Shown here piece after piece: positions 1,323-58,300 of a stretch of DNA of 64,000 nucleotides. Positions within the stretch are counted from its first letter, which is position 1. Each line of letters opens with the position of its first letter. A program made the position numbers and the translations under genes. Below the pieces are notes generated by a model. That model was not told the DNA's origin. It saw only the letters and a list, made by a program, of their open reading frames with translations, and ran no database searches. The stretch is from positions 57,830-121,829 of IMG/VR virus record IMGVR_UViG_2822641076_000001; one strand, given 5' to 3'. The stretch is from a virus. Lineage: Duplodnaviria > Heunggongvirae > Uroviricota > Caudoviricetes.

Positions 1323-1517
1323 ATGAAGACTTTCAAGAGGTATTCAGATGCATTGTTAACATCGTTTATTCTTTCTTACTTCTTGTTTTTCGAGAAGTTC
1401 TTTCAAGATGACTGGTTAAAAACAGTACTCAATATAGGATTAATTATTGTCTTGGTGCTAATCATCATAAATACTCTAATCAGCATTTATAAAGGAACAG
1501 GGAACTTTAAGCGATGA
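1323..1517 (+). CDS. small membrane protein (64 aa)
   Basis: ORF with two hydrophobic segments. Weak SD. Confidence 0.4.
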   Translation: MKTFKRYSDALLTSFILSYFLFFEKFFQDDWLKTVLNIGLIIVLVLIIINTLISIYKGTGNFKR

Positions 1518-1634
1518 GAGTTTTTAATTGGATGTCTCAGGGCATTTCCTGCTCTGAGGTATCCAAATTTCAATCAACCTGTTAAATAAAATGGGGATTT
1601 TAAATCATGGAAGTGGTTAAAAATGGTGAATCTA

Positions 1635-1680
1635 GTATTATATAATATTATATAATGTAATATAATTTTATATTATATAA
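1635..1680 (+). repeat. array of TATAAT-containing decamers with 10-bp periodicity (tattatataa x2, tgtaatataa, ttttatatta, tataa)
   Basis: TATAAT occurs at 1641, 1651 and 1661, exactly one helical turn apart. The array is internally palindromic (ttatataa) and abuts the -35 box of the promoter of the actin-like gene. Candidate centromere or operator. Confidence 0.5.
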
Positions 1681-1687
1681 AAATCTA

Positions 1688-1715
1688 TTGACTATGCACT
1701 CTAGTTTGATATAAT
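1688..1715 (+). promoter_or_regulatory. sigma-A-type promoter TTGACT-16-TATAAT driving the actin-like operon
   Basis: Consensus -35 and -10 boxes 40 bp upstream of the 1757 start. Confidence 0.6.
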
Positions 1716-1756
1716 TGGAGTTGTAGTTAACACATATACATAGGAGATGTTTAAAA

Positions 1757-2968
1757 ATGGTGAAAATGTTATTTAAGGTTTCAAACGACAATGGTAATAG
1801 TGAGCAAGCATTAAAAGTAAATGGTGAGTTATTCACTCAACCAAATATCTATTCTATCGACCGTCCAAAAACAGTAGTTGAAGGAGACCCTTCATTATTC
1901 ATTCCTGCTTTAATGGACAACTTATACGTAACAATCACATCAAGTGCAATTGACCGCAATGGAGATTACTTCATTGGGAAACGTGCTTACAACTCAGATT
2001 ACGCACATTCTTTAACAATCACGAAGAGTGAAAAACATACATCAGATTTACCTATCATCAATACACTGGGCTTCCTAGCAGGCTTAGCAGTTAAGCAACG
2101 ATATGAAGAGAAGCAAGCACTTCCTAAGAGTATTGAACTTAACGTAGACATGGTAACAGCTCTACCTATTAAAGAATACGACGCAACTACGGCAAAAGCC
2201 TTTGAAGAGCGTTTTATGAATAATACACACGAAGTAATGGTTCACGTTGGTACAACATTCGTAAAAGTATCAATCACTTTCGAATTTGTTTATGCATTAC
2301 AAGAGGGTGCATGTGCAAACTACGCACTTATTCTTGATAACAAAGGTGGATGGAGAAACGATGATATTTTCGAAGAGTTAAAATGGGAATATCAATTAGA
2401 AAGCTTCACAGGTGAAGATGTGTTCAATATGAAAATGACTTGTGGAACTGATATCGGAGAGGGAACAACTGACGTTGGAATCCTAAAAGGATATAAACAA
2501 ATTGATGATTTAAGTGGTGGAGATGATTTAGGAGTTGGCTATGCAATCACTAAAGCTCTTCCAGTATTCAAGAAGGCAATGAGATTCCCTGCTTTAACAC
2601 GACATGAATACATGGAAATCGTAAAAGATTCAGATGATGCATTCCATGTAGAAGCAGTTGCTACACTGAAAGACAATTCATCAGACCAAGCAACGCTAAT
2701 TCATAAATTTGTTGAGCAATTAGTTGTTCATGGAGCTAGAAAACAACCTCGATTAATCTCTGTATTCGGTGGTGGTTCTATCACGCTGAAAGACAAGCTA
2801 TATAGCCCACTTAAAGCAGTTGCAGATGATTGCCGTGGTAAAATCTTATGGATTCCTGAGAAGTATGCTACAACAATCAACGTAGAAGGTATGGATGTAT
2901 TCTTAAATGTATTACTTCCACAACTTAAAGAACAACACATGGCTAAGAAAGAGAAGCAGAAGGCGTAA
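1757..2968 (+). CDS. actin-like ATPase of the ParM/Alp family (403 aa)
   Basis: Phosphate-1 motif SNDNGNSEQALK (DxGxxxxK), phosphate-2 motif GTDIGEGTTDVGI (DxGxGTTD) and adenosine motif VFGGGS. Size and motif order match the actin/ParM fold. Confidence 0.7.
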   Translation: MVKMLFKVSNDNGNSEQALKVNGELFTQPNIYSIDRPKTVVEGDPSLFIPALMDNLYVTITSSAIDRNGDYFIGKRAYNSDYAHSLTITKSEKHTSDLPIINTLGFLAGLAVKQRYEEKQALPKSIELNVDMVTALPIKEYDATTAKAFEERFMNNTHEVMVHVGTTFVKVSITFEFVYALQEGACANYALILDNKGGWRNDDIFEELKWEYQLESFTGEDVFNMKMTCGTDIGEGTTDVGILKGYKQIDDLSGGDDLGVGYAITKALPVFKKAMRFPALTRHEYMEIVKDSDDAFHVEAVATLKDNSSDQATLIHKFVEQLVVHGARKQPRLISVFGGGSITLKDKLYSPLKAVADDCRGKILWIPEKYATTINVEGMDVFLNVLLPQLKEQHMAKKEKQKA

Positions 2969-3010
2969 ATTACGTCTTTTGCTTTTGACTAACAGGAGGG
3001 TATTACAATT

Positions 3011-3586
3011 ATGAGTGCAACTAAAAAGGATAAACAAGTCGGTTCAACTATCATCTATAAGTTCGGAGTAGACGACCAAAAATTCGTTGATTGGTACAAT
3101 AACCAAGATAACTTCTCAGATTCATTCCGATTTGTTTTAGATTATTTCATGCAAAAGTTCGGGGATATAGACGTTAAAAAACTTAAACTTATGATAGAGA
3201 TGGGAATGGTCGATTTGGACAATCCTACACCTGTGCAAATACCAACTCCTGTCGCAAAAACACAAGTAACACCAGTACAAACACAATCTGAACCTGCTCA
3301 AGAGGTTGTAGAAGAAATAGCCTCAACAATTGAAGCAAAGACTGTGGAAGTTACAGAACCACCTCAAGAGCCTGTACAAGAGCCTGTACAAGAGGTTGCA
3401 GAGGAAGTTACAGAAGTAGAAGAAGAGAAGGTTAGCAGTTTAGATGTGCCAAAAGTTATTAAAGAGAAGCGTCAAGATGCTCAACCTAAACGAATAATTG
3501 TAGAAGAAAAACCAGTTGAAGTGAAGAAAGAAGCACCAGTAAGTAAGCCTGCTGTAATGCCTTCACTTGGTGATTTGAATAGATAA
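3011..3586 (+). CDS. acidic repeat protein, candidate DNA-binding adaptor of the actin-like system (191 aa)
   Basis: Immediately downstream of the actin-like gene, with a GGAGGG SD. About 70 aa of N-terminal globular sequence, then PVQ/EPVQE acidic repeats. The adaptor role is inference from alp7A/alp7R-type operon organisation. Confidence 0.35.
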   Translation: MSATKKDKQVGSTIIYKFGVDDQKFVDWYNNQDNFSDSFRFVLDYFMQKFGDIDVKKLKLMIEMGMVDLDNPTPVQIPTPVAKTQVTPVQTQSEPAQEVVEEIASTIEAKTVEVTEPPQEPVQEPVQEVAEEVTEVEEEKVSSLDVPKVIKEKRQDAQPKRIIVEEKPVEVKKEAPVSKPAVMPSLGDLNR

Positions 3587-3588
3587 AG

Positions 3589-3618
3589 GGGAGATTATTA
3601 TAATCTCTCTTTTTTTAT
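3589..3618 (+). terminator. rho-independent terminator (gggagatta...taatctct, then 7 T)
   Basis: 8-bp stem followed by a run of seven T immediately after the stop codon. Confidence 0.7.
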
Positions 3619-3628
3619 CCATAATCCA

Positions 3629-3657
3629 TTGACAGTGGATTATGGGATTGCTATACT
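3629..3657 (+). promoter_or_regulatory. sigma-A-type promoter TTGACA-17-TATACT (second copy of the early promoter family)
   Basis: ccattgacagtggattat...tatact is nearly identical to the copy at 1045-1073. Confidence 0.6.
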
Positions 3658-3732
3658 ATGAAAGTGCTAGAGATACGATTTGACAGGTAAAATCAAATGG
3701 TTACAAATTTCATTATGATTCTACAAATCTTC

Positions 3733-3757: not shown

Positions 3758-3826
3758 TAAACTTGATTCAAGGCTTATTTTTTAATTTATAATGTGAACG
3801 ATATGCACATTAGAGGTGGTGAGAAC

Positions 3827-4084
3827 ATGACACATGTAGCGAACAGCATCATGCAAATGAAGGAATTGAACGCTAATGAAAAGCTGATTCTATTAGCTTT
3901 ATGTGTAGAAGGTAATGGTACTAAAGTATCAGTGGCACAAGACATCATAGCTGAAAGGTGTTCATTGACTCGTCGCAGTGTTATTAAATTCATCCAATCA
4001 TTAGAGGACAAGGGGTTCTTAAAGGTTTCACGCTCTGAATATAAGCGTGAGGGAAACATATATGAGCTTCACGTAGCACTATGA
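3827..4084 (+). CDS. winged-helix DNA-binding protein (85 aa)
   Basis: GAGGTGGTGA SD, then ATG at 3827 (internal to track ORF 3794..4084). The pattern LILLALC...VSVAQDIIAERCSLTRRSVIKFIQSLEDKGFLK is typical of MarR/DnaD-like wHTH domains. Confidence 0.5.
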   Translation: MTHVANSIMQMKELNANEKLILLALCVEGNGTKVSVAQDIIAERCSLTRRSVIKFIQSLEDKGFLKVSRSEYKREGNIYELHVAL

Positions 4085-4331: not shown

Positions 4332-5339
4332 ATGGAAAATAACAAAGATTTATATGCAGGATATAAAAACGAACGATATCTCCACTACAGAGAGGTTCAT
4401 ACAGGACAATTCACAACTCAAAATACTAGAAATGGCTCAAGACGTGTACCAATTAGAGAGCAACGTATTGTAGAGTTCGAAGAGATTAAAGCATTGAATC
4501 TTAACTCAATTGGTGAATGTGTTCCTACATTAGATGCAGAAGACTTCACTATGATTCAAAACTATCTGTTAGACTTTTGGGGAGCTGTATTAGGTGCAGA
4601 TTGCATTCAAGTGTATATCCATCTAAGACGTCATGCTTACGGCAAAAAAGACTTCTGCTTCCCTGACATAGACACTATTGCATTGAAGATGAAGAAGAGT
4701 AAGAACTTTGTAAAAGGATGTCTAAAGACTCTAGAAGAGCATAACTTCATTGTCATCTTTAACAGACGTGATACAAAGGATAACAATCGCTCTGTGAGTC
4801 CTCTATTCAAGATTAGAAGGTTTGTTCCTTTATTAACCAATGAACTTTATGAAGAATTGCCTGCTAAACTAAAAAAAGACCATGATACATATATGGAAGA
4901 TTATAAGGATATTGACATTGCGACTAATGAGCTAAAAAACAGTAAAGTAATCGAAGGGTTAATTGAAAACGCTGAGTTATTTAGAAGCAAATCTCAGATT
5001 CGTGAAGCCAAAGAAAAGATTGCAGAAGAAAATAAAGCAACATACATAAGAGAAAAAATTGCTCCTGAGTACATCGAAGCAGGAGAGCAGATTCTCACAT
5101 CTCTTCAAAGCAGAATTTCTAAACCATCATTCGATGTTTGGTTTAAGGATGCTGTACTTGCATTAGATTCAGAGAAAAAATCAGTCTACGTGTTATGCGC
5201 CCATGACTTTGCTAAAACACACGTTCAAGATAAGTTTAAGACAATTATCGCTGAAGAAGTTGGAAAGCAAATCGGATTCAACGTAGAAGATACAACATAC
5301 ATATTCAAAACACACGATGAATATATCGTAGAAATTTAA
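4332..5339 (+). CDS. putative replication initiator or replisome organiser (wHTH, DnaD-like N-terminal region; 335 aa)
   Basis: TAGGAGG SD. The central segment YIHLRRHAYGKKDFCFPDIDTIALKMKKSKNFVKGCLKTLEEHNFIVIF resembles the wHTH of DnaD/phage replisome-organiser N-domains. It lies directly upstream of the iteron and DnaA-box array. Confidence 0.4.
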   Translation: MENNKDLYAGYKNERYLHYREVHTGQFTTQNTRNGSRRVPIREQRIVEFEEIKALNLNSIGECVPTLDAEDFTMIQNYLLDFWGAVLGADCIQVYIHLRRHAYGKKDFCFPDIDTIALKMKKSKNFVKGCLKTLEEHNFIVIFNRRDTKDNNRSVSPLFKIRRFVPLLTNELYEELPAKLKKDHDTYMEDYKDIDIATNELKNSKVIEGLIENAELFRSKSQIREAKEKIAEENKATYIREKIAPEYIEAGEQILTSLQSRISKPSFDVWFKDAVLALDSEKKSVYVLCAHDFAKTHVQDKFKTIIAEEVGKQIGFNVEDTTYIFKTHDEYIVEI

Positions 5340-5367: not shown

Positions 5368-5394
5368 TTTTTTCAGAAAAATAATTCTTCCGCA

Positions 5395-5650
5395 TATCAC
5401 AGCATGATACACTGCCTATCACCACATGATACACGAAACGATTTCCGCCTATCACCGTGTGATACACTGCCTATCACAGTATGATAGGCGACGCATATCA
5501 CCACATGATAGGCGACTTATCCACAGATTTTTTAAAATTATCCACGTTTTTCGCCTATCAGGAGATGATACACGAAATTTCCGCCTATCACAGCATGATA
5601 GTACCCACCTATCACCACATGATACACGACCGCCTATCACACGGTGATAG
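5395..5650. repeat. iteron array: nine copies of the 16-bp palindrome TATCAC-N4-(G/A)TGATA
   Basis: Copies at 5395, 5417, 5450, 5472, 5496, 5555, 5586, 5610 and 5635, mostly preceded by gCC. Spacing between copies is irregular (22-59 bp). The repeats generate the spurious His/Arg-rich ORFs 5426..5702. Confidence 0.8.
5517..5546 (+). promoter_or_regulatory. two direct DnaA boxes (TTATCCACA at 5517-5525 and TTATCCACG at 5538-5546) flanking attttttaaaa
   Basis: The first is an exact match to the bacterial DnaA-box 9-mer and the second matches 8 of 9. They sit in the gap between iteron copies 5 and 6. Confidence 0.55.
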
Positions 5651-5794
5651 TATAATAAGACAATATTCTTTTAAAAAAACAAATCTTTTAAAAAGACCTT
5701 AATAATTAATTAATATATAGGCTTCGCCTGCATTTAAAAATCATCTTCAAATCATCCATTCAAAACCAATACATTGAATATACAATTACTCAGA

Positions 5795-6410: not shown

Positions 6411-6440
6411 TTGACAGTGTACATATTATAAATGTATACT
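6411..6440 (+). promoter_or_regulatory. sigma-A-type promoter TTGACA-18-TATACT (third copy of the cattgacagtg family)
   Basis: gcattgacagtgtacat...tatact. A motif variant (agtgtaaataataataaa) lies 25 bp upstream at 6364-6385. Confidence 0.55.
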
Positions 6441-6637: not shown

Positions 6638-6766
6638 GCGAACATACACACACACATACATACATAGACTACGAAGATAGTCAGCTTAGACCAACTCAAA
6701 CAGTTGAGTCACAAGCAAGATAAGGAACATAAAAGTTACAAAGCTATAAAGGAGAAGTGGTACGAA

Positions 6767-7771
6767 ATGGATGAGCTAAAGAATGGTGAAAATGTAAAAG
6801 ACTTATTTTTAACTAATTATAATAACGATACAACTAAATCATACTACAATAGAATCTTCACTAAAGCCGAAATAATGGAAGAAACTTTAAATAAAGATTT
6901 ATATGATTTTACACTAGAAGAAATTGAAGAGCTTTTAATTCAATTACGTGGAAGCGCACAAGCAACAGAAGTTTACGGTCGTGTTATTTCAGCGTATATG
7001 AAGTGGGCAGTAGAAAATAACTACAAACAAACTAAAAATCCTCTATTAGATGTTAGCGCTAAATGGTTTGAAAATATCAGTGAAAATGTAAAGAACTTAT
7101 ATATAACTAAAAAACAATTATTAAAAATCGAATCAGATTGTTATAACTATCAAGACTCAGCAATAATTAGGTTATTATTTGAAGGAATTTGTGGAGAAAA
7201 AGCTATTGAAATTAGAGAACTAAAAAAGTCAGACGTAGAACAGGCTTTAGAGTTTATGCAAGAAAAGGGTCTTAATAGTGATATAGAAGATACAAAAGTA
7301 CCTTTAAATATTGGCGGAGCTTTCACAGAAGTTGATGCTCGTACTATACTCATGTTAGAACAAGCTATGCAAGAGAAGAGATATTGGAAGAAAAACGGAG
7401 ATATGGAACAAAGAGAGAATATCCGTGCTGTTACTGAATTAGTTGATAATGAATATGTATTCCGTCCTTCTATAACAAGAACAGGAAGTTATCATCAAGC
7501 TATTAAAGAATCTGTTATTTATAGACGTGTTAATTTAATTGGTGAAGTTCTAGGATATCCTCAATTAAAAACTAAAAGTATAATAAAAAGTGGTCAATTA
7601 TATATGGCTAAGAAAATTATGGAAGAAAAAGGCGAGTACTACCTAAGCACAGAAGATTATAAAAATATAGCGATTAGATTTGATATTAATAATTTCTATC
7701 CAATGAAAAAATATTGTAATGTTAAAAACATAAAAGAATTATATGGTGACTTTTTAGGACAAGACAAGTAA
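6767..7771 (+). CDS. hypothetical protein (334 aa; the track frame starts at 6704 with TTG)
   Basis: First ATG with an AAGGAG SD (long 12-nt spacing) is at 6767. The TTG at 6704 has no SD. No confident domain call. Confidence 0.45.
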   Translation: MDELKNGENVKDLFLTNYNNDTTKSYYNRIFTKAEIMEETLNKDLYDFTLEEIEELLIQLRGSAQATEVYGRVISAYMKWAVENNYKQTKNPLLDVSAKWFENISENVKNLYITKKQLLKIESDCYNYQDSAIIRLLFEGICGEKAIEIRELKKSDVEQALEFMQEKGLNSDIEDTKVPLNIGGAFTEVDARTILMLEQAMQEKRYWKKNGDMEQRENIRAVTELVDNEYVFRPSITRTGSYHQAIKESVIYRRVNLIGEVLGYPQLKTKSIIKSGQLYMAKKIMEEKGEYYLSTEDYKNIAIRFDINNFYPMKKYCNVKNIKELYGDFLGQDK

Positions 7772-27154: not shown

Positions 27155-27514
27155 ATGGGAAGTATTACATTTAACGGAAACACGTATTACGGTAATAGCA
27201 TCCACATCAGTAACGGAACAGTCATCATTGATGGTGTTGTTCAAGCTCAAGGACTAAAGGGACACTTAGACATTAAGGTTGAAGGAGATATCCGTGACTT
27301 AACAACGGATGCTCCAACAACTATTGATGGAAATGTATTAGGAAACCTACGAAGCAGAGGCTCTGTTACTTGTCGCAATGTACAGGGTTATGTAGATGCA
27401 GGCGGTAGCGTAACAGCTCATGACGTGGGTGGAGATATTGATGCAGGTGGCTCAGTTCGATGTGGTAGAGTCGGAGGTTCTATAGACGCAGGAGGAAGCG
27501 TCAGACACGGTTAG
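27155..27514 (+). CDS. bactofilin-like Gly-rich beta-helical repeat protein (119 aa)
   Basis: Repeats of x-G-x-V/I-x-G-x-I/V-D-A-G-G-S-V (GSVTAHDVGGDIDAGGSVRCGRVGGSIDAGGSVRHG) resemble the bactofilin/DUF583 fold. Confidence 0.4.
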   Translation: MGSITFNGNTYYGNSIHISNGTVIIDGVVQAQGLKGHLDIKVEGDIRDLTTDAPTTIDGNVLGNLRSRGSVTCRNVQGYVDAGGSVTAHDVGGDIDAGGSVRCGRVGGSIDAGGSVRHG

Positions 27515-29751: not shown

Positions 29752-30030
29752 GTGGAAAAGTTATTACTAGAATTATTGCCGATTATTGCAACAGTATTCT
29801 TATCAATCTGTTATATCCCTCAGATTGTTAAAAACTATAAGACTAAAGATGTTAGTAGCATCTCATTATGGTTTTGGGTATTGTTAAACATTGCATTAAC
29901 TCTTATGTTCACAAATGCATTTATGATTTATAACAAATTTGGAACATATGGCTATCTGATTACAGAGACGTTTAACTTAGGGCTAGCTATGATAGTACTT
30001 ATTCAAGTGTTGATTTATCGAAAGAAATAA
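29752..30030 (+). CDS. membrane protein (92 aa, GTG start)
   Basis: GAAGGAGGTG SD. Three TM helices. Confidence 0.5.
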   Translation: MEKLLLELLPIIATVFLSICYIPQIVKNYKTKDVSSISLWFWVLLNIALTLMFTNAFMIYNKFGTYGYLITETFNLGLAMIVLIQVLIYRKK

Positions 30031-30042
30031 ATCATTTTAATT

Positions 30043-30086
30043 ACAGGTGTAAAAAATATTTTAAATACAAGTGTGAAAAATAATTA
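30043..30086 (+). promoter_or_regulatory. two tandem motif variants (ACAgGTGTAAAAAATAttttaa and ACAAGTGTgAAAAATAATtaaa)
   Basis: Two copies 24 bp apart, immediately upstream of the sigma-A promoter at 30095. Confidence 0.45.
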
Positions 30087-30094
30087 AAAAGGTA

Positions 30095-30230: not shown

Positions 30231-31307
30231 ATGGAAAAACAAATTATAGAATCAGCAAAACAAAACATTATAAAAATAGTAGACTCTTTAGAAGTTTCAA
30301 ATATAGACCAAGTTTACAGTGATGTTGTGAAATACTTAGACTTTGCAAAGGCTTATAGCCAACTACCTCATATCATCAATGGGTTAAATGAAGTGAGTGA
30401 AGAAGCGAATGAGCCTAATCAATCAAATGTCGTTAATTTAAGTGGAGATACAATTCAGCTACATACGGAGAACAAAATTGAGGGTTACGAGTTTAAGAGA
30501 AACATCAAAGGTGGCTATTTAGATGGAACGGATATATATGTTCCCGAAAAGTTCATCAGAGAACTTGGACTACAGCATGGAGACATTGTTAAAGCCGATA
30601 AGATTGGTGAAAAGCGATATAAATATACTGTGTTAGATGATTGTGGTTGTGATAGTTTATCCGATGTAATTTCGATTAAGATGGCTGTCGTAGAATACGA
30701 CCCTTCAAGTAATCGCTATACAGCTAGTAAGGATTGGATGGATAATCCTATTATGATTAACGGTCATAAAGCAGAGATTATTATCTCAGACAATGACTTT
30801 AGAAACTTTAGCATCATGACAGGGGATATTATTGATATCAGCGTAGATAAAAATGACCTTGATTTCAGTCGTGTTGTTTGGAAACATGCAACAACGGATG
30901 AATACAATAGACAGTATACATCAAGTATTAAAAGAGAACCTAAGAAGCCTATCATAGAGAAGAAGAAGCATGAGCAATTCTTCGCAGGTAAAAAGATTGT
31001 TATGGTTGGATTTGATGTAGAGAAAGCTAGTTTCAGAGATGCAGTTGAAAGACATGGTGGACAATTTGAATGTCTTCACGGAATGGAAGATGAATCAAGA
31101 TTTGAGGCAACTATGAAGGATGCAGATGCAGTTGTGCTAATGCTGAGCTTCGTTAAACATAGAGCTACTATCTTAGCAAATCAACTATGTAAAGATAATG
31201 GTATTCCATGTGATTCTTTACACACCAAGGGTAAAAGTGGATTTGTAAGAATGGCAAAAGAACTAATAGATAAGAAAGCAAAAGAGGTACATGTTACCTT
31301 AAAATAA
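30231..31307 (+). CDS. hypothetical protein (358 aa)
   Basis: Long ORF. The C-terminal region (KKIVMVGFDVEKASFRDAVERHGG...) is possibly Rossmann-like, but no confident call. Confidence 0.5.
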   Translation: MEKQIIESAKQNIIKIVDSLEVSNIDQVYSDVVKYLDFAKAYSQLPHIINGLNEVSEEANEPNQSNVVNLSGDTIQLHTENKIEGYEFKRNIKGGYLDGTDIYVPEKFIRELGLQHGDIVKADKIGEKRYKYTVLDDCGCDSLSDVISIKMAVVEYDPSSNRYTASKDWMDNPIMINGHKAEIIISDNDFRNFSIMTGDIIDISVDKNDLDFSRVVWKHATTDEYNRQYTSSIKREPKKPIIEKKKHEQFFAGKKIVMVGFDVEKASFRDAVERHGGQFECLHGMEDESRFEATMKDADAVVLMLSFVKHRATILANQLCKDNGIPCDSLHTKGKSGFVRMAKELIDKKAKEVHVTLK

Positions 31308-55392: not shown

Positions 55393-58300
55393 GTGATGCT
55401 AGTGAGACTTGTGGAACATAGAAATGTCCTTACAAATTTCGATATTAGATATGAGAACTGGCACAAACACACTCACTACAGCAACATCTTTACGGTTGAT
55501 TGTATTATCAAGCCCGAAGATATTGCTAAGCGTGCAGTGGAGCTAGGACACAAAACACTATCTACTGTTGAACATGGATATGCAGGAAATATTTTTGAGT
55601 ACTATGATGTAGCTAAGAAATACGGATTAAAATACATCTTTGGAATCGAGTTCTATTACGTTAAGAACCGCTTCGAGAAAGATAAAACGAATACCCATCT
55701 ATTAGTTATGGCTCGTAATGAACGAGGTATGAAGCAGTTGATAAGTATTATGTCAGAAGCAAATAAGACAGGCTATTACTACAAGCCACGTATTGATGAG
55801 GAGTTATTATTCTCATTGAATCCGAAAGATGTAGTTGTCACGTCAACATGTGTGGCGAGTCCAGTTAATAAGTACGACAGTGAATATGCTGACTGTTTCA
55901 TTTGCAAATGTCATAAGTACTTCGGTGATAATTTCTATCTGGAGATTCAACCTCACGTTCACCCAGTACAGAAAGCATATAACCAAAAGATTCTAGCATT
56001 CCACGAGAAATATAATATCCCATTAGTTCATGCTAATGATACACATTATATCTATCCCGAAGATGCTCAGTATCGTGATTTACTCCTACAGGGTAAAGGA
56101 ATCTTCTATGATGATGAAGATGGATTCATTTTAGATTATCCAAGCTCAGAGACGTTGTATGAGCGTTATGATGCACAAGGTGTATTCACACAGGAACAAG
56201 TCACACAAGCATTGCAGAATACATGTATTGTAGATGACTTTGAAGAGATTGTACTGAATAAGGACATTAAGATGCCTACGATTTACCCTCACTTATCACA
56301 TAAGGAGAAGGTAAATAAGCTCAAGAAGATTGTTCAGAAAGAGTGGAATAAGGATAAGCAACACATCCCAGTTAGTCGTCATGCAGAATACATTGAAGCG
56401 ATTAAGTTTGAGATGGATATCATTGAAACTACGAAAATGGAAGATTACTTCCTACTGAACTATAAAGGAATCAAACGAGCAAAAGAAAAAGGTGGAGTCT
56501 TAACACGTACAGGTCGTGGTTCTGCTCCAAGTTTCTACATAAATAAGTTGCTTGGATTCACAGAGATTGATAGAGTGGATGCCCCTGTTACATTGTATCC
56601 AACACGATTCATGTCTAAATCACGTATTCTTGAGACGAAATCTTTGCCCGATGTGGATTTCAATACTGCTGACGCAACACCATTCGCAGAGGCATGTAGA
56701 GAATTTCTTGGAGAAGATAATGTTTATTACATGACTGCATTCGGAACAATGAAGCGTCCATCTGCATTCCGTAACTTATGTCGTTCAAGAGGAATGAAAA
56801 TGAGTGAATACAACGATGTAGCGAAGAATCTTGAGGACTACGAGAATCATCCACAATGGAGGAGCTTAATTGAAGAAGCTAACCGATTCGTTGGAGTAAT
56901 TGACTCTGTATCACCTCATCCATGTGCATTCTTGTTACTAGATAAGCCAATTTCAGAAGAGGTTGGAGTTATCAAAGTTGGAGATGAGATGTGTGCAGTC
57001 ATAGATTCATACACGTCAGATGTATGGAAATTTCTTAAAAATGATTTTCTTGTAGTTACGGTTTGGCGGATTATTGCAGAAACATTTGAATTAATTGGTG
57101 CGCCAATTCCCGATATCCGTGAACTAACTAAATTAGTAGAAAATAACCCCAAAGTATGGGAGTTATATGAGCAAGGATTAACCGCCACACTGAACCAAGC
57201 AGGAACAGATAGTGGAACACCTCAAGTTAAGCGATATATGCCGAAGAGTATCCGAGAATTATCTGCATGGGTATCAGCGATTCGACCATCGTTTGCATCT
57301 ATGAAAGATGTGTTCTTAAATCGACAGCCGTTCTCATATGGGATACCTGCTTTTGATGAAATCCTTAAAGAGAGTGATAACTTTGTACTCTATCAGGAGA
57401 ACATCATGTCAGCACTGGTATTCGCAGGCTTTAGTGAGGACGTCACCTATGGACTCCTAAAAGCCATTTCCAAGAAGGTAGAAGGCGTAATTGAGCCTAT
57501 CCATGACAAGTTCATCAATGGATTCGTTGAGAAAACAGGTAGCCATGAACAAGCTCTAAAGGTGTGGAAAATCATTGAGGATGCAGTTGGATATGGATTT
57601 AATGCATCACATGCCTTATCAGTAGCACTAGACTCAATCTATGGAGCTTACTTGAAAGCAGAATATCCGCTTGAATATTACACGGTTGTACTGAATCTAT
57701 ATCAAGATAATACAGAGATGACAGCTAAGATTATGAAAGAGCTTGACTGTTTTGGAATCAAGGTTGCACCGATTCATTTCGGTAAGTCTTTAAGTTCTTA
57801 TTCACCTGATAAGGATACGAACACAATCTATAAAGGATTAAAATCTATTAAATACTTGAATGAGCGAGTTGCAAATGAATTATATGACATCGCTCACCAA
57901 GAAGATACAAAGACTATTCTAGTAGGCGATGAGGTATTAACAGTTGATGAGCCAATTCTAAAGCTATTCATCGACATCATGGAGAGAACATCTGTTAACT
58001 CAAAACAGCTCAACATCCTGATTCGATTGAACTTCTTTAGTGATTATGGAACACCTGAAGAGTTATTAAAGATTGCGGAATTAATCCATAAAGGAAAGAA
58101 CCGATACAGCAAGACTCACAAGGCTAATACGAAGATGAAACGTATTGGATTGCTAACCGAAGAGATTCAAATCATTAAATCTCAAGAGTTACCACCTTTA
58201 GATTTATTCGAACAGATTAGTTTTGAGAAAGAGTACTTAGGATACTCAACATTTAAGAAGCCGAATGTGAAGCCTTCATTCTATGTTGTAGTAGAGGTTA

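Follow-up and report, generated by a model that had tools for sequence, protein, structure and literature searches.

What is an actin-like protein doing in a very large bacteriophage? The question is raised by a 64,000-nucleotide stretch of tailed-phage DNA (Caudoviricetes; positions 57,830 to 121,829 of IMG/VR record IMGVR_UViG_2822641076_000001), referred to below as the window and numbered from its first letter. Near its start, region 1500-3700 holds two co-oriented open reading frames (ORFs), 1757-2968 (403 amino acids) and 3011-3586 (191 amino acids), which resemble the motor and the adaptor of a plasmid partition system. The interval 1636-3619 is best read, with a probability of about 0.72, as a type II (ParMRC-like) partition cassette of a temperate Bacillus cereus-group phage of ~153 kb that is kept as an extrachromosomal plasmid prophage. 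Two traits of type II systems are found here, namely a motor and a small adaptor encoded in one operon and, at the sequence level, phased tandem repeats at the operon promoter. The parts of the locus are as follows.

1528-1566, plus strand: terminator-like hairpin (inverted repeat with 17-nucleotide arms) that closes the upstream gene and forms the 5' boundary of the cassette
1636-1680, no strand: candidate centromere and operator made of tandem palindromic decamers (ATTATATAAT twice without error, then GTAATATAAT and TTTATATTAT)
1688-1715, plus strand: sigma-A-type operon promoter, with TTGACT (1688-1693), a 16-bp spacer and TATAAT (1710-1715)
1742-1746, plus strand: ribosome-binding site AGGAG, 10 nucleotides before the ATG at 1757
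1757-2968, plus strand: motor, a ParM/Alp-type actin-like nucleoside triphosphatase of 403 residues (assigned by PHROG, family profile, AlphaFold2 and Foldseek)
2994-2999, plus strand: ribosome-binding site AGGAGG of the second gene
3011-3214, plus strand: conserved N-terminal domain of the adaptor (residues 1-68), presumed to bind DNA
3215-3544, plus strand: acidic, proline-rich linker of the adaptor (residues 69-178) with QEPV repeats, predicted to be disordered
3545-3583, plus strand: C-terminal peptide of the adaptor, KPAVMPSLGDLNR, presumed from its conservation and by analogy with ParR to be the ParM-binding tail
3582-3619, plus strand: terminator-like hairpin and T-run at the end of the operon

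The motor carries three motifs that a first-pass annotation of this DNA had assigned to the actin fold: DNGNSEQALK (residues 11-20), DIGEGTTD (232-239) and FGGGS (337-341). All three are present and coincide with columns that vary hardly or not at all among 29 aligned homologues; no variation is seen at D11, G13, N14, E183, G234, G236, G338 and G339, and almost none at T237 and S341. The patterns D11-x-G13-N14, D232-x-G234-x-G236-T237 and G338-G339-x-S341 are likewise invariant or nearly so in sets of 8-29 homologues, with E183 as the invariant catalytic acidic residue. In profile searches, the motor matched PHROG 691 ('partition protein') at 1.9e-19 over nearly its full length, and a profile of its family retrieved B. 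thuringiensis ParM (BtParM; 8.9e-9) and Alp7A (4.5e-7) from the PDB. The family profile was needed because a phmmer search of the PDB with the single motor sequence returned only noise, with no ParM or Alp among it. NCBIfam gave no match for the motor. An exact match at NCBI, WP_098640112.1, is annotated as 'ParM/StbA family protein'; a large protein collection contained 33 homologues, many of them named ParM/StbA and many carrying PF17989/PF21522. Similarly, motor homologues of 35-43% identity occur in 303 plasmid records of PLSDB, which come mostly from Bacillus and its relatives and are annotated as ParM/StbA.

An AlphaFold2 model of the motor, built on the family alignment, reached a predicted local distance difference test score (pLDDT) of 93.7 and a predicted template modelling score of 0.91. 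The top Foldseek matches to this model were Alp7A (5ec0; E 1.2e-19; TM-score 0.67-0.71), BtParM, Ta0583, pSK41 ParM, pCBH ParM and R1 ParM, each with a probability of 1.00 and ranked above MreB, MamK, Hsp70 and actin. The best structural neighbours are plasmid-partition actins or an archaeal relative, and among the Foldseek matches listed is PDB 4a62, in which the C-terminal peptide of ParR is bound to R1 ParM. The two RNase-H-like domains of the actin fold are found in the model and supported by these comparisons. Judged by its predicted structure, the motor is a ParM/Alp-superfamily actin-fold protein. The first-pass annotation had staked its claim of an actin fold on profile or structure comparison, and both place the protein in the ParM/Alp group. 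By analogy with this group, the motor would be expected to form filaments. Its subfamily is distinct from Alp7A, to which it is 17% identical in the structural alignment and to which a sequence relation is seen only with the family profile.

The adaptor gene follows after an intergenic gap of 42 bp, and the two genes have one common promoter. Its acidic product of 191 residues contains QEPV repeats and falls into three parts, a conserved N-terminus, a variable linker and a conserved C-terminal peptide. Relatives are 20-33% identical in the N-terminal domain, where Q32, R40, G51 and D54 are invariant; segment 12-50 of this domain (an alternating hydrophobic stretch, a short helix, a turn and a long helix) is compatible with the fold known as ribbon-helix-helix (RHH). 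The linker of ~110 residues differs in length and sequence even among near-identical elements. It has a pLDDT below 50 and no predicted secondary structure, and its gene segment contains a 12-bp repeat at 3365-3394 (Tandem Repeats Finder). The C-terminal motif VMP(S/G)(L/I)GD(L/M), here VMPSLGDL, has been kept in three phage clades despite their divergent linkers and is presumed, by analogy, to contact ParM. ParR proteins bind DNA through an N-terminal domain and ParM through a C-terminal tail, and the anatomy of the adaptor reads as the ParR/Alp7R-type layout. An acidic repeat protein in adaptor position had already been pointed out for 3011-3586; the order array, promoter, motor, adaptor does match that of alp7AR/alp7C, and it recurs in relatives. 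A HMMER scan of 1.84 billion protein cluster representatives yielded seven relatives of the adaptor, none of them annotated. On one contig of 152,713 bp, a protein of 104 residues (P0041) matches the adaptor P0042 over ~80 residues and then continues in a Ser/Cys-rich tail, and is probably the product of a frameshifted adaptor gene in one carrier strain.

A terminator-like hairpin precedes the array (1528-1566), with an RNA fold of -23.7 kcal/mol and a z-score of -5.5 relative to shuffles. Another, at 3582-3619 behind the second ORF, folds at -13.4 kcal/mol (z = -3.1) and runs into UUUUUUU. The two genes thus form a self-contained operon, and ribosome-binding sites can be read from the sequence before both. 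The repeat unit of the array, ATTATATAAT, is a perfect palindrome that occurs in two error-free copies followed by two copies matching at 8/10 positions. Four good units occupy 1637-1676, and an extra perfect TTATATAA is found at 1673, in a register shifted by 5 bp with respect to the first two units. TATAAT recurs at 1641, 1651 and 1661, at the spacing of exactly 10 bp that the first-pass annotation had reported; the number of such triplets expected from dinucleotide-preserving shuffles of the window is 0.00. Tandem Repeats Finder gave a period of 10, with 4.3 copies at 1636-1678 and the consensus TATTATATAA. Across the 64 kb, ATTATATAAT with at most one mismatch is not enriched outside the array (9 matches vs 8.7 expected), and a cluster of units of this kind occurs only at the par locus.

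The consensus promoter that had been described next to the array is also present. Its -35 box TTGACT lies 7 bp downstream of the array end, its -10 box is TG-extended (TG-a-TATAAT at 1707-1715), and it fits the consensus at 11/12 positions, a fit that is by itself no proof of activity. It is invariant in 7/7 aligned elements. The -10 region (TTGATATAAT) was considered as a further repeat site, as 8/10 unit positions match and TCTAGT stands before both; it was not counted because any consensus -10 box fits half of the unit. Just upstream of the array, 1609-1639 repeats with 77% identity the start of the motor gene (ribosome-binding site and first codons, GGAGATGTTTAAAAATGGTGAAA, 1743-1773), and the upstream copy opens a mini-ORF of 10 codons that runs into the array. 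This copy has been kept in close relatives and is absent from the clades with 55-57% identical motors; it could be a duplication or insertion scar, or could encode a leader peptide.

Further evidence on the array comes from its relatives. Promoter and array are conserved in six near-identical elements, of which three (3/6) have an insertion of 10+1 bp inside the array. The insertion consists of ATAAAATAAC plus T (L003 3999-4009, L010 and L011; alignment columns 108-117 and 129), and the promoter regions are otherwise identical; in L010 and L011, a T-to-A change breaks the second palindrome. In two more divergent loci, L004 and L005, the motor is 55% and the N-terminal domain of the adaptor ~31% identical, and palindromic TCATATGA/TCATATAA units with a spacing of 10-11 bp are found directly upstream of TTGACA. 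A third locus, L006, encodes a ParM of 57% and an adaptor of ~30% identity and has three CTATATAG-type units with a spacing of 10 bp, again directly upstream of TTGACA. All three loci have the gene order par motor, adaptor, small helix-turn-helix protein and Rep, with an MrpR-like gene as well on the longer contig L004. The motor-adaptor pair is present in all relatives examined. Upstream of the motor gene, remoter plasmid relatives contain AT-rich arrays of 10-12 bp or repeats of the GTACTGA type. On plasmid p02 of B. cereus FRI-35 (L001 5560-5930), for instance, ~12 GTACTGA/TCAGTAC repeats occur in both orientations. They fill the 550 bp that precede a ParM gene of 39% identity, a centromere-like region much larger than that of the window.

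In keeping symmetry, phasing and position while the sequence changes, the array behaves as a protein-binding site co-evolving with the adaptor would. This pattern argues against the alternative that the array is promoter architecture only, be it an UP-element-like A/T tract, curved DNA or a set of overlapping -10-like hexamers, with the centromere lying elsewhere or the downstream protein being no adaptor at all. Such an account would explain why the array is made of A/T alone, why it sits exactly at the position of an UP element, why its core TATAAT equals the -10 consensus and why single matches to the unit occur at chance frequency in an A/T-rich genome, and it would agree with the lack of a demonstrable DNA-binding fold in the adaptor. 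However, it does not account for the exact 10-bp phasing of a perfect palindrome, nor for the palindromes TCATATGA and CTATATAG, which stand at the same place in relatives with a 10-11-bp period, are less A/T-pure and change along with the adaptor. Palindromy, phasing and the repeat-sized length step between otherwise identical promoters are traits of protein-binding iterons, not of UP elements, and promoter architecture as the sole role of the array is considered improbable.

If the cassette is a partition system, it may be expected to work as follows, along the lines of the established ParMRC and Alp7ARC models. Dimers of the adaptor would bind through their N-terminal domains to the contiguous palindromic decamers at 1636-1680 and build a small nucleoprotein 'centromere' complex. 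From this complex the acidic, disordered tethers of ~110 residues would extend, and the VMPSLGDL peptides at their ends would capture filament ends of the actin-like ATPase. Insertional growth of filaments between paired, adaptor-loaded sister episomes would then push these apart, so that both daughter cells inherit the prophage. The complex of adaptor and array probably also represses its own promoter, since 7 bp separate the end of the array from the -35 box.

The genes that follow the operon bear on the state in which the element is maintained. Four features are of particular relevance.

3794-4084, downstream of the operon: small winged-helix protein
4332-5339, plus strand: plasmid/phage-type replication initiator (Rep), with Pfam HTH_36 and DnaA_N and a match to PHROG 26369 'replication initiation protein' at 5e-44
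5394-5650, no strand: nine palindromic iterons CTATCAC-N4-TGATA just after the Rep gene (Tandem Repeats Finder period 24)
6704-7771, plus strand: MrpR-family protein with a tyrosine-recombinase fold, a candidate master repressor of lysogeny (Pfam MrpR_N_CB 2e-19, MrpR_C_cat 6e-16)

The Rep gene, the iterons and the MrpR-like gene all lie within ~4 kb downstream of the operon. The iteron motif has 24 strand matches in the window vs 8.35 expected, and 18/24 of these fall within the 260 bp at 5394-5650, which is likely a plasmid-type origin of replication ~1.8 kb from the par operon. ORFs listed at 5426-5702 are spurious artefacts of the repeats. The best PDB sequence match of the 6704-7771 product is SPbeta MrpR/YopR (8a0a; 3.5e-24), a protein with a tyrosine-recombinase fold that has lost catalysis and acts as the master repressor of SPbeta lysogeny (PMC10516654). 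A role of this product as a multimer-resolution recombinase was considered and rejected, as the Pfam 'MrpR' family is that of the SPbeta master repressor, which is also the best PDB match. PHROGs labels the same protein 'integrase'. Homologues with ~38% identity in Tsamsa, Izhevsk and the Thrax phages carry XerC or integrase annotations, so that a lysogeny repressor may be counted among the 'three tyrosine recombinases' of these phages.

Separate contigs of ~150-154 kb with the operon also occur in the assemblies of several isolates, assigned to B. thuringiensis, B. cereus, B. wiedmannii and B. bombysepticus, with one labelled B. anthracis; an IMG/VR entry of 152,852 bp has the operon too. The place of the operon on the contig is not constant (~29 kb or ~97 kb and, in reverse orientation, ~113 kb or ~89 kb), which fits a circular or permuted separate replicon. 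What remains of the window is a large phage module for replication and nucleotide metabolism, with genes for a Sak4-like ATPase, a sigma factor, DnaB, DnaG, RecJ, an RNA ligase, a polynucleotide kinase, a ribonucleotide reductase, a DNA ligase, a DnaE-type polymerase and NAMPT. With the polymerases of Geobacillus virus E3 and the Tsamsavirus group, the DnaE-type polymerase shares 62-64% identity, and the gene order from the MrpR-like gene via DnaB to DnaG is syntenic with Izhevsk ORF80-90.

The first-pass annotation had left it between 'segregation or positioning' of phage DNA. Segregation of a plasmid prophage is the better supported of the two, given the Rep gene, the iterons, the MrpR-like repressor and the ~153-kb contigs, and positioning during lytic growth less so. 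A mainly lytic role, the chief rival reading, would mean that the same three components position or organize replicating phage DNA, as AlpC, AlpA and alpS do, and it would be compatible with partition. The operon lies in a same-strand, early-type gene block with strong sigma-A-type promoters, upstream of DnaB, DnaG, the DnaE-type polymerase and ribonucleotide reductase, as would suit such a role, and AlpC/AlpA provide a precedent for a phage actin and an adaptor on promoter-region repeats that serve replication (PMC4446434). Yet the operon has as its neighbours a Rep gene of plasmid type, the iterons and an MrpR-like repressor of lysogeny, the great majority of its homologues serve plasmid partition, and the element has been recovered as a separate contig of ~153 kb from many isolate genomes. 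Moreover, the par promoter at 1688 is without the TTGACAGTG...TATACT signature of three neighbouring promoters, a difference that hints at separate control. With its plasmid-type neighbours and stand-alone contigs, the cassette is more readily assigned to inheritance, and a mainly lytic function is regarded as unlikely.

The three promoters concerned (1045-1073, 3629-3657 and 6411-6440) are near-consensus and share TTGACAGTG-N-A...TATACT, which is expected 0.00 times by chance. The signature could be a common operator, of the MrpR-like repressor for instance, that overlaps the -35 box.

It could further be asked whether the cassette is an inactive remnant, left by an insertion of plasmid origin and now without function. 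In favour of this, mobile par cassettes pass between replicons, and related Tsamsavirus phages carry a different, shorter ParM (276 amino acids) at another genome position. Against decay, both ORFs are intact and preceded by good ribosome-binding sites, neither the catalytic and nucleotide-binding residues nor the promoter vary, and among numerous independent isolates and metagenomes the motor and adaptor proteins are conserved at 79-100%. A remnant of this kind is considered very improbable.

Several findings weigh against reading the locus as a partition cassette of a plasmid prophage. The Pfam domain ALP_N scored 21.3 bits on the motor, below its gathering threshold of 26.3 (MreB-like_C, at 17.5 bits vs a cut-off of 27.8, was also sub-threshold). 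With four to five sites the array is short compared with the nine of alp7C, and part of its regularity could reflect promoter-upstream A/T tracts. For the adaptor, no relative was found in Pfam (searched with six family members), NCBIfam or the PDB. Its AlphaFold2 model, from a shallow alignment, had a pLDDT of 48.9, with low-confidence helices at 22-29, 32-50 and 55-63, and gave 0 Foldseek matches. Comparison by hhalign with Arc, Mnt, CopG, ParG, omega and R1 ParR (sequences entered by hand) and with the ParG-like protein of Izhevsk gave probabilities of at most 2%. Binding of the adaptor to the repeats is inferred from the arrangement of the locus and its relatives. As for the replicon, the episomal state is deduced solely from contig sizes and break points; PLSDB holds no closed circular record of the element, its best ParM match being 43% identical, and no virion genes were found in the 64-kb window.

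For want of virion genes in the window, the label 'phage' rests on the homology of the replication module, on synteny with Tsamsavirus and Geobacillus virus E3 and on the IMG/VR listing; phage identity appears well supported, but indirectly. The 10 kb upstream of the window contain only small unannotated ORFs, no record was found for the last gene of the window, and terminase-based scans of IMG/VR did not retrieve the contig with this ParM.

A bolder version of the partition reading holds that the adaptor founds an undescribed centromere-binding family, with a domain other than RHH and an unusually long acidic tether, and that the cassette serves both inheritance and lytic positioning in a 153-kb phage-plasmid related to SPbeta, Tsamsavirus and Geobacillus virus E3. 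It leans on the absence of Pfam, NCBIfam and PDB relatives of the adaptor and on the mere seven representatives among 1.84 billion protein clusters, and is regarded as unlikely.

The type II reading can be set beside the partition systems of R1 and pSK41, whose three-part logic (motor, adaptor and promoter-side repeats in ParM, ParR and parC) is shared by the locus. The parC sites of R1 and pSK41 consist of repeats phased at ~10-11 bp at the promoter and are also autoregulatory. In pSK41 parC, one RHH dimer is bound per ~10 bp, an arrangement that would fit contiguous palindromic decamers. Unlike in R1, all repeats of the window lie upstream of the -35 box and do not flank the promoter. The motor is 14-16% identical to the R1 and pSK41 ParMs, and R1 ParR shows no detectable similarity to the adaptor.

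A close parallel is with Alp7A, Alp7R and alp7C of the B. subtilis plasmid pLS20, where the operon likewise consists of the motor gene and, behind it, a small adaptor gene. The RHH protein Alp7R binds as a dimer to nine repeats and forms clusters on alp7C (10.1101/098954). In pLS20 these tandem repeats lie at the operon promoter; the window has repeats at the same place, and binding by its adaptor is predicted. Alp7R is unrelated in sequence to the adaptor, which at 191 residues is longer and has an acidic tether of ~110 residues. The replicons differ as well, pLS20 being a conjugative plasmid and that of the window a phage of ~153 kb.

Among temperate Bacillus phages, IEBH, vB_BtS_B83/BMBtp14, Bp8p-C and the Tsamsavirus/'Tyrovirus' phages Izhevsk and Thrax resemble the element in that genes for a replication initiator and a recombinase-fold protein accompany a type II par module. 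A ParM-like protein with a small, usually RHH, adaptor, together with Rep and recombinase-fold genes, has been published as a hallmark by which plasmid prophages of the B. cereus group, IEBH, B83 and Bp8p-C among them, can be told (PMC8026635), and a ParM-like protein reportedly affects lysogeny in Bp8p-C and Bp8p-T (as cited in PMC6669507). A plasmid stage has also been proposed for Tsamsavirus/'Tyrovirus' relatives from their own ParM and ParG-like genes (PMC7685451, PMC9703825). In general, the par modules of these Bacillus phages have been interpreted as serving plasmid-prophage maintenance (PMC8026635, PMC6669507, PMC7685451, PMC9703825). Izhevsk differs from the window in having a ParM of 276 amino acids instead of 403 and a 94-residue ParG-like adaptor at another genome position. 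The different ParM subfamily and position indicate that the cassette of the window was acquired independently.

The Corynebacterium glutamicum prophage CGP3 likewise encodes an actin-like protein and a co-transcribed adaptor, with adaptor-binding repeats in the operon promoter region; the corresponding binding by the adaptor of the window is predicted. The CGP3 site alpS comprises 24 degenerate TTAAnnG repeats (PMC4446434). CGP3 is an integrated prophage in which the alpAC system promotes replication after induction (PMC4446434), whereas the element described here is read as a plasmid prophage. No sequence relation of the CGP3 proteins to those of the window was seen, though no search aimed at one was made.

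The combination of ParM and a small adaptor in Bacillus plasmid prophages is thus already known, as is the naming of the motor as ParM/StbA at NCBI, and no new mechanism is opened by the par locus. What is new is the motor subfamily, with its 403 residues and Alp7A-like fold. Searches of 50,697 phage records with the operon (megablast and tblastn) gave no match at 1e-5. The best weak tblastn match was the BMBtp14 partition protein, with 29% identity over half the protein (E 8e-5), so this ParM clade appears not to be represented among sequenced phage isolates. Also new are the unannotated adaptor family and a cleanly defined candidate centromere with natural specificity variants, of which three are represented by TTATATAA, TCATATGA and CTATATAG. 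The known actin-based systems of DNA segregation thereby gain a compact, well-delimited par cassette (~2 kb, with a candidate centromere of 45 bp). The locus also lends support to the idea that Bacillus siphophages of very large size (~150-170 kb) are maintained as plasmids, in this case with a cassette acquired apart from that of Tsamsavirus. For annotation, the 'hypothetical protein' WP_098640113.1 is a likely partition adaptor, and the widespread contig of ~153 kb in B. cereus-group assemblies is a probable phage-plasmid.

The first-pass annotation had gone further in crediting the phage with cytoskeletal genes of its own, citing a bactofilin-like gene at 27155 in addition to the motor. The suggestion holds for the ParM-like protein and is not supported for the second gene. 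The ORF at 27155-27514 encodes 119 amino acids that belong to PHROG 3163, of unknown function. It gave no bactofilin (DUF583) match in Pfam at E <= 0.01 and no PDB sequence match, and its one Pfam signal was to the FapA beta-solenoid, sub-threshold at 20.4 bits vs a cut-off of 31. Its Gly-rich DAGGSV/GGSV repeats suggest a beta-solenoid.

Further ParM-like genes, a large clade 35-39% identical to the motor, were found at loci L018-L093 on large contigs, some of them complete chromosomes, of Paenibacillus, Cohnella and Fictibacillus. Most of these are without AT-rich tandem arrays upstream; they may be chromosomal ParMs with another role or may belong to integrated elements. Finally, a 24-bp tandem repeat (AAATATTTTAAATACAAGTGTAAA, 2.5 copies) lies at 30029-30089 of the window, in the intergenic space between ORFs 29752-30030 and 30231-31307.

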